DNA of 64,000 bases from an uncultured Fimbriimonadaceae bacterium (lineage in GTDB: Bacteria; Armatimonadota; UBA10988). The stretch lies in NCBI GenBank assembly GCA_964531735.1, contig CAZHGD010000005.1:4095-68094 (forward strand). Reading direction: 5' to 3'. The notes beneath the pieces were generated by a model, which was not told the origin of the DNA, searched no databases, and worked only from the letters and a program-made list of their open reading frames with translations. Below, piece by piece: positions 21,578 to 28,820 of this stretch. The number at the start of each line of letters is the position of its first letter. Positions within the stretch are counted from its first letter, which is position 1. A program made the translations under genes and the position numbers.

Positions 21578-22987
21578 ATGCCATCGGACGCTTTGGTGGA
21601 GTGCGTATCCGGCGGGCTGACGCCGGTGGGTCGGTTGGCCACGAAGACGTCGGCCGAGATTGGCGCCTCGTGCTTCTCGGTCGGCGTCGAGACGCTCGAC
21701 CGCGGCATGTGGGACTTCGACCGCGGGCTGCCGGCCATCGTGCCACTGGGAGCCAAGTGGGCTCGGGTGCAGACCGGCTGGGGCAAGTGCGAGACCACGC
21801 GCGGCGTCTACGACTTCGCCTGGCTCGACCACATTGTCGATGCCCTGCTGGCGGCCGGCATCGAGCCGTGGTTCAACGTGGGCTACGGCAACCAGCTCTA
21901 CCTGCCGGACGCGCCGCACCCCACCGCGGTCGGCTGGACGCCGATCCACGACGAGGGCGCGCGCGCCGGCTGGGCCGGCTTCACCGCGGCGCTGGCGCAG
22001 CACTTCGCCGGGCGCGTGAGCTGGTACGAGGTGTGGAACGAGCCGGACATCTCGGCCTTCTGGACGCCTTACGAGTCCACGCCGGAGAGCTACACCGACC
22101 TGGCGATCCTGACCGCGCAGAGTCTGCGCCGCGGCGATCGGAACGCCAAGGTGGTCGGCGGCGCGGTGGCCGCGGCGCTCTACCACCGTGGGCTGGAGTG
22201 GATCCACGGCTGCTTCGAGCACGGCCTGGGCGAGCACATCGACGCCTTCAGCTTCCACCAGTACACGCCGACGCCCGAGCGCGAATACGAGACCATCGCG
22301 CCGTCGCTCAAGGCTCTGGTACACAGCTATCGCCCGGGTCTGCCGATCTGGCAGGGCGAGTCGGGCGCGCCGTCGAAAGCGGTGCCAGGTCAGGCGCTGG
22401 CCGACTGCGTCTTCGACGAGGATCGGCAGGCTCGCTGGAACACGCGGCGAGCGCTGCTCGACCTGCGGCACGGGATGACGCTGAGCGCGTTCTTCTGCGC
22501 CGCCGACTTCCAGTTCTACATCGTCAAGGACCAGTTGGTGGAGAAGGAGTACTACTTCGGCCTGCTGGCGGGCAAGGAGTTCCGGCCGAAGCCCTCGTTC
22601 TACGCGGCGCAGAGCCTCTGTACGCTGTTTGCCGGCGACATTCGCCGCGCCGACGAGGCCAACCCGGTGCTGCGTCTGCCGGCTGAAGCGAACCCGAGCG
22701 AGGCGCGCGCGGTGGTCTTCGAGACCAGCTACGGGCCGTTGCTGGCGTACTACCAGGCCCACCACATGATGCAGCCGCTGACGCCGGCGGCCGGTGAGCT
22801 GTCGGTCTGGCTGCCGCACCGCTGGGAGCTGCGCGAGCCGGTGCTGATCGACCCGATCAGCCAGCGCGCCTACGCGGTGCCGAGCGAGCCGGCGAAGGCC
22901 GGCGTGCAACGCTGGCGAGTGCCGGTGGGCGACTGGCCGCTGCTGCTGGGCGAACGGGCGCGGCTGCCGTTGGTGGCGAGGTCCTGA
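21578..22987 (+). CDS. glycoside hydrolase, clan GH-A (GH5/GH39-like)
   Basis: WYEVWNEPD (acid/base NEP motif) and IWQGESG (candidate nucleophile Glu). GGGGAGA SD. No signal peptide. Confidence 0.75.
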   Translation: MPSDALVECVSGGLTPVGRLATKTSAEIGASCFSVGVETLDRGMWDFDRGLPAIVPLGAKWARVQTGWGKCETTRGVYDFAWLDHIVDALLAAGIEPWFNVGYGNQLYLPDAPHPTAVGWTPIHDEGARAGWAGFTAALAQHFAGRVSWYEVWNEPDISAFWTPYESTPESYTDLAILTAQSLRRGDRNAKVVGGAVAAALYHRGLEWIHGCFEHGLGEHIDAFSFHQYTPTPEREYETIAPSLKALVHSYRPGLPIWQGESGAPSKAVPGQALADCVFDEDRQARWNTRRALLDLRHGMTLSAFFCAADFQFYIVKDQLVEKEYYFGLLAGKEFRPKPSFYAAQSLCTLFAGDIRRADEANPVLRLPAEANPSEARAVVFETSYGPLLAYYQAHHMMQPLTPAAGELSVWLPHRWELREPVLIDPISQRAYAVPSEPAKAGVQRWRVPVGDWPLLLGERARLPLVARS

Positions 22988-23138
22988 CACCGGGGCGGCG
23001 CGGGCGCCCTCGCGGGAGGGCACCCGCGCCACCGCCGTGATGGACGAGCAGAATCTCGCCGGCCGCCGAGATTCCACTGGAACAAACGTTCGCTTTGCGC
23101 TACCCTCCGAGCAACGCCGGGCACGGAGGGTACTGACG

Positions 23139-24059
23139 ATGATCCTCTCGGTCAGCCGGAAGACCGACATTCCGACCTTCTACGGTCAGTGGTTTCGCAA
23201 TCGGTTGCGCGCGGGCTACTGCAAGACCGTCAACGCCTACAACCGCCGCCAGCATCGGACCGTCTCGTTGCGGCCGGGCGATGTCGATGGGTACGTGTTC
23301 TGGACCAAGAACTGCGGGCCGTTCTTCGACGCGCTGGACGAGGTCCACGAGACCGGAGTGCCGTTCGTCGTCCACTACACCGTCAACCCGTACCCGCGGG
23401 CGATCGAGCGTGCGGTGGTGGACACGGCGCGCGCGGTGCGGCATTGCCACACCGTGGCGCAGCGGTACGGGCCGTTGTCGCTGGTCTGGCGGTACGACCC
23501 GGTGATCGTCTCGGAGCTGACGCCGCCCGAGTGGCATGTGCGCGAGTTCGCCAACTTGGCCGCACAACTCGAGGGCTGCTGCGACGAGGTGGCCACCAAG
23601 TTCGTCAATCCTTACCGCAAGACGCGCCGCGGTCTGGACCAGGTGGCCGCGGAGGAAGGCTGCCGCTGGTGGGACCCGCCGGCGGACGAGAAGGCGGAGC
23701 TGCTGCAACGGTTGGCCGTCATCGCCGCGCGGCACGGCCTGGCGCTGCGCACCTGCTGCCAGACCGCGCTGCTGGGCAACGGCGTGGAGCCGGCGATCTG
23801 CATCGACGCGGCCCGGCTGACCGCCATCAGCGGACGGGCCTTCGCCGCGCCGAAGCGGCCGATTCGGGCCGAATGCCGCTGCGCCGCGTCGCTCGACATC
23901 GGCGAGTACGACACCTGCCCGCACGGCTGCGCCTACTGCTACGCCGTGCAGCGGCGGCCCGTGGCCATCGCCCGGCACCGGCAACACGATCCGCTGGGCG
24001 AGTACCTGTTCCGGCCCGAGACGGTCGCGGCCGAGACGGAGCAGTTGGCGCTGTTCTGA
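23139..24059 (+). CDS. DUF1848-family protein with a C-terminal radical-SAM-like Cys cluster
   Basis: MILSVSRKTDIPTFYGQWF is the canonical DUF1848 N-terminus. C-terminal CPHGCAYC (Cx3Cx2C). GGAGG lies 9 nt upstream of ATG 23139. The ORF-track start at 23037 is an N-terminal extension. Confidence 0.8.
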   Translation: MILSVSRKTDIPTFYGQWFRNRLRAGYCKTVNAYNRRQHRTVSLRPGDVDGYVFWTKNCGPFFDALDEVHETGVPFVVHYTVNPYPRAIERAVVDTARAVRHCHTVAQRYGPLSLVWRYDPVIVSELTPPEWHVREFANLAAQLEGCCDEVATKFVNPYRKTRRGLDQVAAEEGCRWWDPPADEKAELLQRLAVIAARHGLALRTCCQTALLGNGVEPAICIDAARLTAISGRAFAAPKRPIRAECRCAASLDIGEYDTCPHGCAYCYAVQRRPVAIARHRQHDPLGEYLFRPETVAAETEQLALF

Positions 24060-24080
24060 GCCGCCTCGGCCGCGCGCGGG

Positions 24081-24665
24081 CTACAACAGCAGCTCGATCT
24101 CCGCCTTCAGGTCGCCGTCGAGCAGCGCCCACAGGCGCCGGCGCGCGGCCCGCAGGCGACCTTTGGCCTGCCCGTCGGTCAGCCCCGGCGCCGCCGCGCG
24201 CCGAGCCGCGGGCCCGGCGGTGCACGCCAGCAGCAGCGCCCGGTCATCAGCCGACAGCCTCGCCAAGGCCGCCTCGAGCCCCTGCGCCAAGGCACGGCCG
24301 GCCACCTCCTCGTCCGGCGGCCGCGCCGAGTCCACCACCTCGCCTTCCAACAAGTCAGGGCATTCCTCCACTATCGTGGCGAGAGTCTCCAGCGACAGAG
24401 TCCGGCCGCATGGCTCGCGAGCCAGCGTCGTCTCACGCCGGCGGCCCGCCAGGCGCCACGCGCGGCGACGCAGCCAGTGGTGCGCCGCCGCCGGCTCAGC
24501 GGGCATGGCGCCCTTGACCACCTCCTCCGCCAGATCGGCCACCACCTCCTGCGCCTCGCTCCAGCGGCCCAACCGCCGCACCACCAACCGCAACAGCCCC
24601 GCCCGGTGCCGCTCGAACAGCGCCGCCCGCGCCAACACGGCCGAGTCCGTCTCCTCCAGACGCAT
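24081..24665 (-). CDS. ECF-type (sigma-70 family) RNA polymerase sigma factor
   Basis: Region 2 (ALFERHRAGLLRLVVRRLGRWSEAQEV) and region-4 HTH (LSADDRALLLAC...GLTDGQAKGRLRAARRRL). The start was refined to MRLEETD, with GGAG 7 nt upstream. No anti-sigma gene lies downstream. Confidence 0.75.
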   Translation of the reverse strand: MRLEETDSAVLARAALFERHRAGLLRLVVRRLGRWSEAQEVVADLAEEVVKGAMPAEPAAAHHWLRRRAWRLAGRRRETTLAREPCGRTLSLETLATIVEECPDLLEGEVVDSARPPDEEVAGRALAQGLEAALARLSADDRALLLACTAGPAARRAAAPGLTDGQAKGRLRAARRRLWALLDGDLKAEIELLL

Positions 24666-24767
24666 CAACCATCTCCATGGGGTCGGCGACCCACCGTCAC
24701 CATAGAACATCTGTTTGCACTTCGTCAAGAGCCAATTCCCAACAACATGGTGGTTGCGACCAATCGT

Positions 24768-24796
24768 GTTGACACGGTGGCGGCGAGGTGGTACGG
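24768..24796 (+). promoter_or_regulatory. sigma70-like promoter TTGACA-N17-TACGGT in the divergent sigma/LexA-like intergenic region
   Basis: Hexamers read directly, about 40 nt upstream of ATG 24835. Confidence 0.3.
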
Positions 24797-24834
24797 TAGG
24801 CCGCTGCGGGGATGGGTCGGTAAGGTGCCAAGCG

Positions 24835-25566
24835 ATGGGTGAAGAGGCCAACGGCGGCGACCTGCATATCGGGCGGAACATTGACTCGCTGCAGCGGCAG
24901 TTGGGGGTCAGTGACGAGGATATGCTGGCGGAGCTGGGGCTGAGCTACAACCGCTTCTGGGACATGAAGCGACGGGAGTGGGCCCAGAAGCGCACCGTGG
25001 CGCAGGTGGCGGCAGCGCTGTCGCGCCTGTCGGGGGTGGCGGTGCAGCCCGACCAGGTGATGACCGGGCGGCTACGGCCGGAGGACTTCGGCCGGCGGGC
25101 GGTGGCCGAGTTCCTGCGCCGGGCGCAGGAGCTGGACCCGGCGGACGGCCTGCCGAACGGCGATGGCGTGCGCCTGCCGCGGCTGCATCTGGGCTCGTTG
25201 CCGGCGGGTCCGGCCGAGACGTTCCAGGCAGCCGGCTCCGACCTGGTGGTGCGGGCCGATCCGGGCGACTTCGTGGTCACCGCCGACGGCGACTGCATGT
25301 TGCCCACGCTGGGCCACGGCGACGAGCTGGTCTGCGTGTTCACCGAGCAGGCCGACGACGGGCAGTTGGCCGTGGTCAGCTACGCGGATGAGGGCGGCCT
25401 CTGGCAGAGCGGCGTCAAGCGGGTCCGCCGCGATGGCGACCGGCTTTGGCTGTCGTGCGACAATCTCGGCGCCGATTCGCTGGGCCAGCGCCGCTATCCG
25501 GACATTCATCCGGCGGAGCTGCGAATTCATGGTATCGTGGTTGGACTTTGGCGCGCGCTGCGCTAG
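24835..25566 (+). CDS. XRE-HTH / S24 (LexA/UmuD/CI-like) autopeptidase-family regulator with Cys at the nucleophile position
   Basis: The C-terminal domain aligns to UmuD/LexA: GDCM (versus GDSM), LGHGDELVCV, GVKRV (the catalytic Lys), and IHGIVVGLW. The N-terminal HTH is IDSLQRQLGVSDEDMLAELGLS. The Cys codon is TGC at 25294-25296. Confidence 0.75.
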   Translation: MGEEANGGDLHIGRNIDSLQRQLGVSDEDMLAELGLSYNRFWDMKRREWAQKRTVAQVAAALSRLSGVAVQPDQVMTGRLRPEDFGRRAVAEFLRRAQELDPADGLPNGDGVRLPRLHLGSLPAGPAETFQAAGSDLVVRADPGDFVVTADGDCMLPTLGHGDELVCVFTEQADDGQLAVVSYADEGGLWQSGVKRVRRDGDRLWLSCDNLGADSLGQRRYPDIHPAELRIHGIVVGLWRALR

Positions 25567-25599
25567 CAGTGGCGCCCAGTGCCGCGCGAAACGAGGTGC

Positions 25600-26367
25600 G
25601 CCATGCCAGGGCCTGTGGTAGGTATCCAGCCGATCATCTTCGGTGACCGCAAGTTCGAGGACCCGACCGGCTGTCTCGACGAGGTGCGTGAGGCCGGCTT
25701 CTGCGGCGTCGAAGCGCCGAACTACTTCCAGCGCTTCGAGCCCGACAAGGTCAAGCACTGGTTCAACGACCGCGGTCTGGTGGTCCCGGCCACGCACGGC
25801 GGCTACCACGACATCGAGGACCCGGAGAAGCTGACCGCCAATCTGGACTTCGTACAATCGTTCGGCGGGCGCTACATCATCGTCAGCGGCACCAAGGACC
25901 AGACCCTCGAAGGCTACGATGAGTCCATCGAGGTCTTCAACATGGCCGGCGAGATCTGCCGCTCGCGCGGGCTCCGGTTGCTCTATCACAACCACGCCTG
26001 GGAGTTCAAAGAGATCGCTCCGGGCGTGCGCGGCATCGACCGCATCATCGAGCGCACCGATCCGTCGCTGGTGGGTCTGAACATCGATGTCTACTGGGTC
26101 CACGTCGGTGGCGTCGATCCGGCCGAGTTCGTCTACGACTACGGGCACCGCTCCGGCTACTACCACTTCAAAGACGGCGGCGTCGGTGACGATGGCCAGC
26201 CGTACTTCGCGGAGCTGGGTCAAGGCACGGTCGACCTGGCGGCGGCGCTGGAAGCGGCCAAGGAAATGGGCGCGCAGTGGATCGTCTACGAGCAGGATCG
26301 CACCGAGCGCGACACCTTCGATTCGTTGACGATGAGCCGCGAGCACCTGCGCGCCATCGGCGTCTGA
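25600..26367 (+). CDS. sugar phosphate isomerase/epimerase (xylose-isomerase-like TIM barrel)
   Basis: Typical AP_endonuc_2 / XylA-like TIM signature (HFKD, YYHFKDG). AGGTG lies 5 nt upstream of ATG 25600. Confidence 0.85.
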   Translation, partial: AMPGPVVGIQPIIFGDRKFEDPTGCLDEVREAGFCGVEAPNYFQRFEPDKVKHWFNDRGLVVPATHGGYHDIEDPEKLTANLDFVQSFGGRYIIVSGTKDQTLEGYDESIEVFNMAGEICRSRGLRLLYHNHAWEFKEIAPGVRGIDRIIERTDPSLVGLNIDVYWVHVGGVDPAEFVYDYGHRSGYYHFKDGGVGDDGQPYFAELGQGTVDLAAALEAAKEMGAQWIVYEQDRTERDTFDSLTMSREHLRAIGV

Positions 26368-26558: not shown

Positions 26559-27681
26559 ATGGTTGACGCCCTGAAGCAACGGTACGACGCCCTGACCCAC
26601 CGCACCGCGGAAATGGGAGGGTATCTTTGACCTGGCTTCACGCCGGGCCCGGATCGACGAACTGAATGAGCGCACGCTGGCGCCCGGGTTCTGGGATGAC
26701 CAGCAGGCGGCCCAGGACACGCTGAAGGCGTTGGCCAAGGACAAGGCCTACCTCGAGCCTTGGGATGAGCTGGCCGGCCACCTCGACGACGTGGCGGTGA
26801 TGATTGAGTTGGCCGAGGAGGACGCCGAGGAGGCGACCGAAGCCGAGGCCGAGGCCGAGTTGACCGTCGCCGAGCAGTTGCTGGCGCAACTCGAAGTCGC
26901 GGCCATGCTGGGCGGCCCCTACGACGACCACGACGCGATTGTGGAGCTCTCCGCCGGCGCCGGCGGCAACGACGCCTGTGACTGGGCCGAGATGCTGTTC
27001 CGCATGTACACGCGCTGGGCCGAGCGCCAGCGGTTCAAGCCCGAGGTCATCCAGGTCTCGGAGGGTGAGGAAGCCGGCCTACGCTCGGCCACGCTACGCA
27101 TCTCGGGCCGCAACGCCTACGGCCTGTTGCGCGGCGAAGGCGGGGTCCATCGGCTGGTGCGCATCAGCCCGTTCGACTCGAACGCCCGGCGGCACACCTC
27201 GTTTGCCGGCGTCACCGTCATGCCCGATGTGGCCGACGACATCAACATCGAGATCGACGAGGCCTACCTGCGCGTGGACACCTACCGCAGCAGCGGCGCC
27301 GGTGGCCAGCATGTCAACAAGACCGACAGCGCGGTGCGGTTGACGTACCAGCCGCCGGAGCTGGACCGGCCGCTGGTGGTCTCGTGCCAGAACGAGCGCA
27401 GCCAGCACAAGAACAAGTCGACCGCGATGAGCGTGCTCAAGGCGAAGCTCTACGAGATCATGCAGCGCCAGCAAGCCGAGCACCTGTCCGACCTGCGAGG
27501 CAAGGTGGAGGAGTTCGCCTGGGGCAACCAGATCCGCAACTACGTGCTGCACCCCTACCGCATGGTCAAGGACTTGCGCACCGAGGTGGAGACCGGTGAC
27601 ACCGACGGCGTCCTCGACGGTGACCTCGACCGGTTCATCGAGAGCTACCTGCGCCAGACCGCCGGGCAGCACGCGGACTGA
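26559..27681 (+). CDS. prfB: peptide chain release factor 2, requiring a programmed +1 ribosomal frameshift: join(26559..26627, 26629..27681)
   Basis: Frame 0 reads MVDALKQRYDALTHRTAEMGGYL then TGA. The site is GGGAGGG-TAT-CTT-TGA-C at 26615-26631, the canonical RF2 autoregulatory shift site with an SD-like element 3 nt upstream. The +1 frame continues DLASRRARIDELNERTL... through SPFDSNARRHTSFA and GGQHVNKTDSAVRL. Confidence 0.92.
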
Positions 27682-27828: not shown

Positions 27829-28539
27829 TCAGTCGGCGGCTGACGTCCAGTTGGCGTAGGCCATCACGCGGGCCGTGGTGGTGCCCGCGGTGCCGGCGGC
27901 GATGCGCTGCCACTTGACGTGGCCATCCACAAAGGCGATGTTCATGCCTTCGTTGTGCGGGAAGACCAGGTTCCGGGTCTGGTCCCAGGTGTACCCGCAG
28001 CACATGCGGCAGTTCATCTCCAACACCGTGATGGTGCCGGCCGGGTCGCCGATGCTGGCGTCCTTCTGCGGCGTCTCGGGCCGCGCTGCGATCGGCCCTT
28101 GGTTGGCCTGGGCCAGCACGGCGCCGGCGGCGTCCAGCCGGTTGGTGTTGACCCCGTAGCCGGGCGGCGTCGTGCCGGCGCCACGCCCGGTGGTGCCAGG
28201 CTCACAGCTCGCCGCCGGCAAGCCGTAGTTGGTTGACGGACACGAGAAGATCTGGATGTTCTTGATGTACGGGCTGGCCACTTCGCGCCAGTTGGTGTTG
28301 GCGCGCGGGTCTGGCGACACGGTACAGCCCTGCCACCACGCCTTCATGAAGGTCTGGTCGTAGTCGCTCACGTACTGCAGAATGGCCAGCGCCATCTGTT
28401 TCTCGTTGGACTGGCAGCTCGACTGCCGCGCCTTCTCGCGCGCTTTGGCAAACACGGGGAACAGGATGGCTGCCAGAATCGCGATAATGGCGATGACGAC
28501 CAGCAGCTCGATCAGCGTGAAACCGCGTCGGTTTCTCAT
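27829..28539 (-). CDS. DUF1559 / H-X9-DG prepilin-like protein (paralog 2)
   Basis: [48 protein letters not shown] and [21 protein letters not shown] lies 6 nt upstream of ATG 28539. A TTGAAA-N17-TACAAC promoter-like pair sits at 28600-28628 on the minus strand. Confidence 0.85.
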
Positions 28540-28820
28540 CACCGTCCTCCTCTGGGCTCACCGGACCGAGGTCCGGCCGATCGTCCCTGCGCTGCCACGG
28601 TTGTAACCCATCGGCGACCACGTTTCAACACAAATCGGAAGGGCGCCTCCCGACCGCGCCGGGTCCGGCAACGCCGTCGGCACCCGGCGCCCGGTGTCGG
28701 AGCGGCTGCCGGGGGCCTGGCCGACCCGCAGCGTGCCTGACCCGGACCAGACGATCGTGGCCGGAGCGCCGACGCCAAGACGTCAGTCGAGTACCATAGC
28801 CCAGACGTGAGCAAACTCCC

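Follow-up and report, generated by a model that had tools for sequence, protein, structure and literature searches.

A cI-like S24 regulator with a conserved Cys-Lys pair beside an ECF-type sigma factor gene that carries a candidate SOS box

Introduction

S24 proteins (LexA, UmuD and the phage repressors) are textbook self-cleaving switches that rely on a Ser-Lys dyad, and they are drug targets against the SOS response. On contig CAZHGD010000005.1 of an uncultured Fimbriimonadaceae bacterium (phylum Armatimonadota, assembly GCA_964531735.1), a 64-kb stretch, analysed as a whole and henceforth called the window, encodes an S24 regulator with a cysteine in place of the serine, divergently oriented to a gene for an extracytoplasmic function (ECF)-type sigma factor. 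What does such a regulator do next to such a gene: is the cysteine genuine and likely to be catalytic, what controls the sigma factor gene, and does the regulator itself do so? Our literature search found no paper on LexA in Armatimonadota, on a natural cysteine in S24 proteins or on ECF-S24 pairs. The best overall explanation, to which we give a probability of about one half, is that a Cys-Lys S24 repressor sits beside an ECF sigma module under SOS control. Coordinates are positions in the window unless a locus is named, L numbers denote fetched loci, and P numbers denote homologous proteins.

A cI-like S24 regulator with cysteine at the nucleophile position

The S24 regulator has 243 residues. 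A mechanical open reading frame (ORF) call on the plus strand, 24715-25566, begins with TTG at 24715; we placed the true start at ATG 24835, since the orthologues and the ribosome-binding-site context favour it. Pfam Peptidase_S24 (PF00717) matches at 33 bits against a cut-off of 23.3 and is matched by all 19 family members, and a PHROG match to phrog_4 (E = 2.8e-11), annotated 'transcriptional repressor', extends over residues 12-242. The NCBIfam LexA equivalog TIGR00498 reaches 22.6 bits (cut-off 110.95), over the C-terminal half only, and no match to LexA_DNA_bind (PF01726) was returned by the Pfam and NCBIfam scans. We built an AlphaFold2 model from the 19-sequence family alignment (mean predicted local distance difference test score, pLDDT, 74.5), in which a six-helix N-terminal domain (pLDDT ~88-93) and a beta-rich C-terminal domain flank a low-confidence region holding the linker and cleavage site. 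Foldseek searches of the PDB with this model gave full-length fold matches to lambda cI (3bdn), the 186 repressor (2fjr) and ClgR/HTH_3, and matches of the C-terminal domain to those of LexA, UmuD' and cI with E values down to 1e-7 and template-modelling (TM) scores of 0.64-0.74, LexA superposing at 0.73. Sequence matches of the N-terminal domain to the helix-turn-helix (HTH) protein 7t5u were weak. Based on the Pfam, PHROG and structural evidence and on the TIGR00498 score far below cut-off, the architecture is cI-like (an XRE-type HTH plus S24) and not that of canonical LexA. The PF00717 score and the LexA fold match bear out the first-pass annotation in so far as it called the protein a LexA/UmuD-like S24 regulator. 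Defence-system libraries held no match for the S24 regulator or for the sigma factor.

Profile-profile alignment (hhalign) to Escherichia coli LexA placed Cys154 on Ser119, Lys195 on Lys156 and Cys208, in the motif LSCDN, on Pro167; an HMM alignment to Pseudomonas aeruginosa LexA gave the same catalytic correspondence, and the GDxM and VKR motifs align with LexA residue for residue. Codons and alignments therefore agree with the first-pass reading of a cysteine at the nucleophile position with the catalytic lysine kept. The putative scissile bond, Ala124-Gly125, lies in the motif LPAGP, in which Gly125 is invariant and Ala124 is found in at least 90% of the 19 orthologues; the xPAGx motif of distant S24 relatives aligns with it, and the hhalign match to LexA left it uncovered. 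It precedes the nucleophile position by 30 residues, and the spacing in LexA, UmuD and cI is 35-38 residues. From these positions we propose that the regulator may cleave itself at Ala124-Gly125 by means of a Cys154-Lys195 dyad. The same Cys-Lys arrangement was put into the S24 active site in the laboratory mutant LexA S119C, which Slilaty and Little reportedly found in 1987 to cleave at a significant rate; catalysis by a thiol is thus chemically plausible. That cysteine was engineered, whereas the one described here is natural, fixed in its clade and accompanied by two further conserved cysteines, Cys167 (in ELVCV) and Cys208.

Both additional cysteines are nearly invariant in the family. In the model, Cys208 is predicted to be a cross-strand neighbour of Lys195, since the strands assigned by DSSP to residues 190-200 and 203-207 form a hairpin. 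Five distant relatives have a cysteine at the position of Cys208, and in this biased sample the nucleophile position is Cys in three, Gly in two and Ser in none, a co-occurrence suggestive of a redox or metal feature.

Conservation of the Cys-Lys pair

A search over 5.8 billion proteins returned 18 orthologues at 57-70% identity, and all the named ones come from Armatimonadota/Fimbriimonadaceae metagenome-assembled genomes (MAGs). In the family alignment Cys154 is present in 17 of the 19 members, two (P0017 and P0018) have alanine, and the serine of the S24 family is absent throughout. The codon is TGC in the nine independent assemblies checked (the window and eight other loci) and GCG in the alanine variants. 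Cysteine is thus a fixed trait of this group, at odds with the first-pass caveat that it might be strain-specific or pseudogenic. The position of Lys195 is occupied by lysine in all 17 cysteine-bearing members and by arginine in P0017 and P0018, the latter also lacking Ala-Gly and the other two conserved cysteines. A midpoint-rooted neighbour-joining tree resolved the cysteine group as one clade, 55-85% identical overall, all 17 members of which retain Cys, Lys and Ala-Gly, and placed the two Ala/Arg proteins as deep branches. Cysteine and lysine are therefore kept together and lost together, as expected if the two residues act jointly, and P0017 and P0018 are presumably non-cleavable versions of the regulator.

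A closer homologue with serine does not occur in the family: when all 1.84 billion representative proteins were scanned with the family profile, a single family cluster came out at 434 bits, followed at 51 bits by ordinary LexA/S24 proteins. Among 148 distant relatives, 128 have the Ser-Lys pair and eight a cysteine nucleophile, six of them with lysine, a frequency inflated by the search profile, which itself favours cysteine. The P0090 cluster (seven members, including P0172-P0177), P0061 and P0097 have invariant Cys, Lys and PAG at 35-38% identity, and only P0061 in this second lineage also has a cysteine at the position of Cys208. With P0033, P0088 and P0073, they are metagenomic XRE-S24 proteins outside the family that combine a cysteine nucleophile with Lys and PAG. 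Since the pair recurs in an unrelated XRE-S24 lineage, natural Cys-Lys S24 regulators arise repeatedly.

An SOS-type box in the promoter of the sigma factor gene

Taken alone, the protein encoded by the divergent gene scores 20.5 bits with Sigma70_r2, against a Pfam cut-off of 24, is likewise below cut-off in NCBIfam and has one homologue by word search. We therefore rely on a profile of seven sequences from orthologous loci (25-40% identity, 81% for P0021), which matched SigL (E = 9e-10) and SigE (E = 5e-9) in the PDB, both over sigma2 and sigma4, profile positions 8-183 corresponding to SigL residues 9-169. Sigma70_r2 was detected in all seven orthologues and r4 in three. Judged by these matches, the product is a true ECF-type sigma factor that evolves fast and has no extra domain. 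A co-transcribed cognate anti-sigma factor is typical of ECF sigma factors, though not universal; there is no anti-sigma gene by the sigma gene, the downstream gene being a convergent rluD at other loci or the DUF1848 gene in the window, so that profile and gene order together uphold the first-pass view of a divergent ECF sigma factor gene without an anti-sigma partner.

The intergenic region between the two genes (24666-24834, 169 bp) holds a promoter for each. That of the S24 gene, TTGACA-N17-TACGGT as described at first pass, is conserved as TTGAC-N17/18-(TG)nTAtgCT in L001, L003, L004 and L007-L014 and does not overlap an SOS box. The sigma-70-type promoter of the sigma gene is the only promoter-like site that a consensus scan called in 22950-25700, and its -35 element (GTCAAGAG on the plus strand) and TAnnnT -10 element are conserved across loci. 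Within its spacer lies the 12-mer that ranks highest in conservation across the intergenic regions, part of a box of the form GAAC-N4-GTTY with an A/T-rich centre, the pattern that canonical LexA recognises in Gram-positive-type lineages as the Cheo-type SOS box. Comparison of orthologous regions, which the first-pass annotation had suggested as a way to find a palindromic operator, thus yielded this box as the only strongly conserved one. With a position-specific scoring matrix (PSSM) we found it at the same place of the sigma promoter in eight of 13 loci (the window, L003, L006, L008, L009, L011, L012 and L013); it is absent in L001, L002, L004, L007 and L010.

Two other readings of the region were rejected. 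GAAC...CGTC on the plus strand as an ECF-type promoter does not fit the spacing of 13-14 nt and the conservation of both palindrome halves. A private palindromic operator between the promoters does not fit the repeats seen there, which are imperfect, share neither sequence nor spacing between loci and do not clearly exceed chance expectation; in the window they read TCCCAACAAC-atg-GTGGTTGCGA (24737-24759), and others occur in L007, L011 and L013.

The box is not confined to the sigma promoter. The motif GAACNNNNGTTY has seven strand-hits in the window against 1.1 expected, and the only other strong PSSM match there, TGGAACAAACGTTCGC, overlaps the -35 region of the DUF1848 promoter. The remaining two GAAC-N4-GTTC matches lie within genes, have G/C-rich centres and are probably due to chance. 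On three other Armatimonadota contigs, DUF1848 orthologues that are not beside a sigma/S24 pair have the box at their own promoter (L015 1596-1611, L016 1526-1541, L017 1640-1655), and in one MAG it is present at DUF1848 (L015) and absent at the sigma promoter (L001). Its presence in the window and on these three contigs makes DUF1848 a likely DNA-damage-inducible gene of the lineage. In L016 and L017 the divergent neighbour of DUF1848 is tcmP, for a three-Cys-motif partner protein (TIGR04474, 128-133 bits), whose box has the same layout as at the sigma promoter, the box being followed by GTCAAG; the window DUF1848 gene has no adjacent tcmP. Beyond the sigma, DUF1848 and tcmP sites, the PSSM gave no further match of at least 16 bits in ~190 kb scanned.

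P0022, a canonical LexA serving as outgroup, is the closest non-family match to the S24 domain. Its gene has a promoter TTGACC-N17-TATGGT (L019, 1308-1336) whose spacer and -10 element are covered by the palindrome CCATACAAATGTATGG, and the left half of this palindrome is identical to the sigma-promoter box of L012.

Table 1. Features of the locus and of related loci.
Feature	Position	Strand	Basis or remark
Highly diverged ECF-type sigma factor gene, 194 aa, sigma2 + sigma4 only	24081-24665	-	7-orthologue profile
S24 regulator gene, XRE/cI-type HTH + S24 self-cleavage domain, 243 aa	24835-25566 including stop	+	
N-terminal all-helical domain, residues ~10-99, XRE/cI-like HTH	24862-25131	+	AlphaFold2 model, fold matches
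GCG-GGT codons, Ala124-Gly125, putative scissile bond (LPAGP)	25204-25209	+	Orthologue conservation
TGC codon, Cys154, nucleophile position (LexA Ser119)	25294-25296	+	hhalign, HMM alignment, orthologues
Codon of Cys167 (ELVCV), second conserved Cys of the S24 domain	25333-25335	+	Nearly invariant in family
AAG codon, Lys195, general-base position (LexA Lys156)	25417-25419	+	hhalign, HMM alignment
Codon of Cys208 (LSCDN), third conserved Cys	25456-25458	+	Nearly invariant
S24 gene promoter, TTGACA (24768-24773)-N17-TACGGT (24791-24796)	24768-24796	+	Direct read, orthologue conservation
Sigma gene promoter, sigma-70-type, TTGACG (24728-24723), 18-nt spacer, TATGGT (24704-24699)	24699-24728	-	
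Candidate Cheo-type SOS box, TAGAACATCTGTTTGC	24703-24718		Within spacer of sigma promoter; top conserved 12-mer of intergenic regions
Second candidate SOS box, TGGAACAAACGTTCGC	23078-23093		Overlaps -35 region of DUF1848 promoter; PSSM 21.5 bits
DUF1848 gene, radical-SAM-like	23139-24059	+	Pfam 282 bits; one UniRef source name 'DNA repair photolyase'
Xylose-isomerase-like TIM-barrel gene	25603-26367	+	Pfam AP_endonuc_2 75.6 bits; 36 bp 3' of S24 gene
Ala/Arg orthologue P0017	L004 6001-6720		Deep-branching; same locus and sigma partner kept
Ala/Arg orthologue P0018	L006 1076-1825		Deep-branching; same locus and sigma partner kept
tcmP	L016 507-1442	-	Box 1493-1508
tcmP	L017 636-1556	-	Box 1607-1622

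Which protein binds the box

A major question is which repressor acts at this box. In the explanation that we prefer, the sigma factor gene would be ancestrally SOS-repressed as a member of a LexA-type DNA-damage regulon, and the protein on the box would be a canonical LexA whose gene lies elsewhere in the genome. After DNA damage, derepression would switch on the sigma gene, and a sigma-factor cascade would follow. The S24 regulator would be a dimeric HTH repressor, made constitutively from its strong housekeeping-type promoter, that probably inactivates itself by the Ala124-Gly125 cut using Cys154 and Lys195 and so would add a second cleavable, possibly thiol-sensitive, input.

Several observations carry this proposal. 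Membership of the sigma gene in a LexA-type regulon is suggested by the same box upstream of DUF1848 and of tcmP elsewhere in the lineage. A global binder of LexA type is favoured because the box occurs at unlinked promoters and has been lost at five of 13 sigma promoters, and because the HTH segment of the S24 regulator (LGLSYNRFWDMKRR) is nearly invariant in the family; such loss would be normal regulon turnover for a global regulator and odd for a private repressor-operator pair. A canonical LexA, finally, is favoured because one of the unlinked sites precedes DUF1848, to which one source gives the name of a DNA repair photolyase, and because the motif is exactly of LexA type and makes no contact with the promoter of the S24 gene: in the window the box stops 50 bp upstream of its -35 element, and a box over its own promoter, by which canonical LexA autoregulates, is not found at the S24 gene. 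Canonical LexA is thus the most likely binder of the box, and a probable one; binding by the neighbouring Cys-S24 protein as a non-canonical LexA is less likely, and on present evidence improbable. The sequences themselves show the domain identity, the residue correspondence, conservation, gene pairing, the promoters and the box with its distribution; self-cleavage, thiol catalysis, the binder of the box and induction of the sigma gene by DNA damage are predicted.

Some results weigh against the explanation as a whole. A canonical LexA was found neither in the 64-kb window nor in the fetched loci, which make up a small share of the genomes. The box belongs to the intergenic region upstream of the S24 gene itself, a placement that comparative genomics commonly takes as a sign of autoregulation by the neighbouring factor, and the second box of the window, at a distance of only 1.6 kb, would be consistent with a local regulon. 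The S24 protein's own operator was not found in the intergenic regions compared, which hold weak, variable repeats. As to cleavage, pLDDT falls below 50 in the cleavage-site region of the model, and the persistence of P0017 and P0018 at this locus means that the gene can be retained without cleavage.

The first three of these points would be accounted for if the Cys-S24 protein were the lineage's own SOS repressor, a non-canonical LexA that binds the sigma, DUF1848 and tcmP boxes and cleaves itself after damage. XRE/cI-type S24 proteins do run SOS regulons in Bacteroidetes and, as HdiR, in Streptococcaceae (PMC8565304), and the box stands upstream of the S24 gene in eight of 13 loci. Its clearance from the S24 promoter speaks against this, as does the motif itself, which is that of winged-helix LexA, the Bacteroidetes proteins using unrelated ones; the family is one tiny isolated cluster, and the stretch of sequence scanned is much too short for the absence of LexA to be concluded. 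We therefore regard this as unlikely.

Alternatively, the S24 domain might be a non-catalytic pseudo-peptidase, whose cysteine is no nucleophile and which serves dimerisation or the sensing of a ligand or partner only. The absence of serine from the family, the persistence of the Ala/Arg proteins in the locus and a faint Pfam match for P0017 point that way. The joint retention of Cys154, Lys195 and Ala-Gly in 17 members and their joint loss in the others argue for a working dyad, as do the recurrence of Cys-Lys-PAG in independent lineages and the reported cleavage by LexA S119C, and we hold a purely structural role to be similarly unlikely.

The first-pass annotation had proposed that the S24 protein stands in for an anti-sigma factor or a repressor in controlling the sigma gene; as a dedicated local repressor it would form a switch of the cI/Cro or PrtR/PrtN kind. 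Indeed, the sigma gene lies divergently beside the S24 gene at each of the 12 loci whose sequence extends upstream, no anti-sigma gene is present, between rluD and prfB both genes stand as insertions specific to the lineage, and S24 repressors divergent from an activator are known (PrtR/PrtN; IrvR/IrvA, the latter in PMC7101444). The only conserved operator, however, resembles a global SOS box, is also found at unlinked promoters and is lost at five of 13 sigma promoters with no matching change in the HTH. The conserved order runs rmlD, a dksA/traR-type gene, lspA, rluD, sigma (-), S24 (+), the TIM-barrel gene and prfB; because the whole neighbourhood from rluD to prfB is syntenic in a narrow lineage, the pairing may be inherited gene order and is weak evidence of coupling. 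The proposal is not supported by these data, and we consider it doubtful.

A repressor of a prophage or prophage remnant would explain why the best whole-length family is a phage repressor PHROG and why the architecture is cI-like. No phage genes were found in the flanks: every locus has housekeeping surroundings (rmlD, a dksA/traR-type gene, lspA, rluD and prfB), and the position stays the same throughout the lineage, even with protein identity of only ~52-60%. From this conserved order, the module is chromosomal and old within the lineage and not a prophage, an origin we regard as very improbable. Finally, a sequencing or assembly error in the cysteine codon, raised at first pass because AGC and TCC are each one substitution from TGC, or a pseudogene, has practically no chance given TGC in nine independent assemblies, cysteine in 17 of 19 orthologues from different samples, and an intact ORF under strong purifying conservation.

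The cysteine allows a more far-reaching reading: a thiol S24 autopeptidase whose cleavage depends on whether Cys154 is reduced, oxidised or alkylated, giving a LexA-like switch that would join oxidative or electrophile stress to DNA damage and drive the ECF sigma cascade. A disulfide or metal site with Cys208 or Cys167 may be part of such a gate. We put this forward as a long shot, and replacement of LexA by the S24 regulator as SOS master repressor of the lineage is somewhat more likely than redox gating.

Comparison with known systems

LexA of E. coli, P. aeruginosa and Mycobacterium tuberculosis (MEROPS S24) resembles the S24 regulator in the fold of the C-terminal domain, the lysine and the placement of Ala-Gly, and differs in its serine nucleophile and in its winged-helix N-terminal domain, which contrasts with the six-helix XRE/cI-like bundle found here. 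The lambda and 186 cI repressors, PrtR-PrtN of P. aeruginosa and IrvR-IrvA of Streptococcus mutans share the combination of HTH and S24, and in the latter two the S24 repressor is likewise divergent from a positive transcription factor. Such S24 proteins can work without RecA, as described for IrvR (PMC7101444). In contrast to cI, PrtR and IrvR, the window regulator has an ECF-type sigma factor as partner and a cysteine nucleophile, and the conserved operator resembles a global SOS box.

Closer in organisation are the non-canonical LexA proteins of Bacteroidetes and HdiR of Streptococcaceae, chromosomal cI-like HTH plus S24 proteins that control DNA-damage regulons, keep the Ser-Lys dyad and use operators of the form CTAA-N5-TTAG or GGA-N5-TCC (PMC8565304). 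The S24 regulator shares the part of the definition of a non-canonical LexA that calls for a chromosomal cI-like HTH plus S24. The other part is control, through its operator, of a canonical SOS network (repair, translesion synthesis, cell-cycle arrest); a box regulon of sigma, DUF1848 and tcmP exists here, with the S24 regulator as one candidate binder. Unlike those proteins it falls in a separate isolated cluster, and an SOS role is for it a candidate only.

On the sigma side, SigG of M. tuberculosis is encoded by an ECF-like sigma gene with a DNA-damage-responsive promoter (PMC3776920). The likeness to the locus described here would extend to a two-step cascade started by a damage-responsive promoter on an ECF-like sigma gene. 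UviA of Clostridium perfringens, an SOS-controlled alternative sigma factor, is alike in the same way. The sequence relationship to SigG is limited to the ECF fold, and the window sigma gene has a predicted cleavable S24 regulator next door.

As far as comparison of sequences goes, what appears to be new is an SOS box in the spacer of a sigma gene promoter together with a clade of natural Cys-Lys S24 proteins in a little-studied phylum. If the proposal is right, a stable natural cysteine nucleophile would show that thiol chemistry works in the S24 fold in nature and would open the way to redox- or electrophile-sensitive autoproteolysis. It would also be a first look at a regulon of SOS type in Armatimonadota: Cheo-type boxes stand before the ECF sigma gene, before DUF1848 and before tcmP, and they point to a damage-induced sigma cascade. 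We regard this as a real but modest variation, which extends the known S24 family and overturns nothing known.

Neighbouring genes

In the window the DUF1848 gene and the sigma gene converge, as noted at first pass; this part of the description stands, and as a neighbour of the pair DUF1848 is peculiar to the window, being adjacent at none of the other loci. We therefore rejected it as part of the module, though the operator motif is common to both. Its product matches the PADLOC model RTasDUF1848 (DRT-associated).

The xylose-isomerase-like TIM-barrel gene follows the S24 gene by 14-72 bp in most loci (L002, L004, L006, L007, L011 and L014), is absent in L003 and L013 and may be co-transcribed with it; no functional link between the two is evident at these loci. 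An assignment of the product as an endonuclease IV-type repair enzyme was rejected, its nearest relatives being sugar-phosphate isomerases and IolE.

Further downstream, prfB (release factor 2, 26560-27681) has the classical programmed +1 frameshift site CTTTGAC at 26626-26632, preceded by GGGAGG. In L003 and L013 prfB is a single uninterrupted ORF of 372-373 aa, so the autoregulatory frameshift appears to have been lost or gained within the lineage. A protein with a prepilin-type N-terminal methylation motif is encoded 3' of prfB in at least two loci, on the minus strand of the window (27829-28542) and of L003 (7969-8877).

At the other end of the pair, the convergent 3' ends of rluD and the sigma gene, as called, overlap by 47-107 bp (L004 5217-5263, L007 5176-5243, L012 2209-2315), which leaves no room for a terminator between them.

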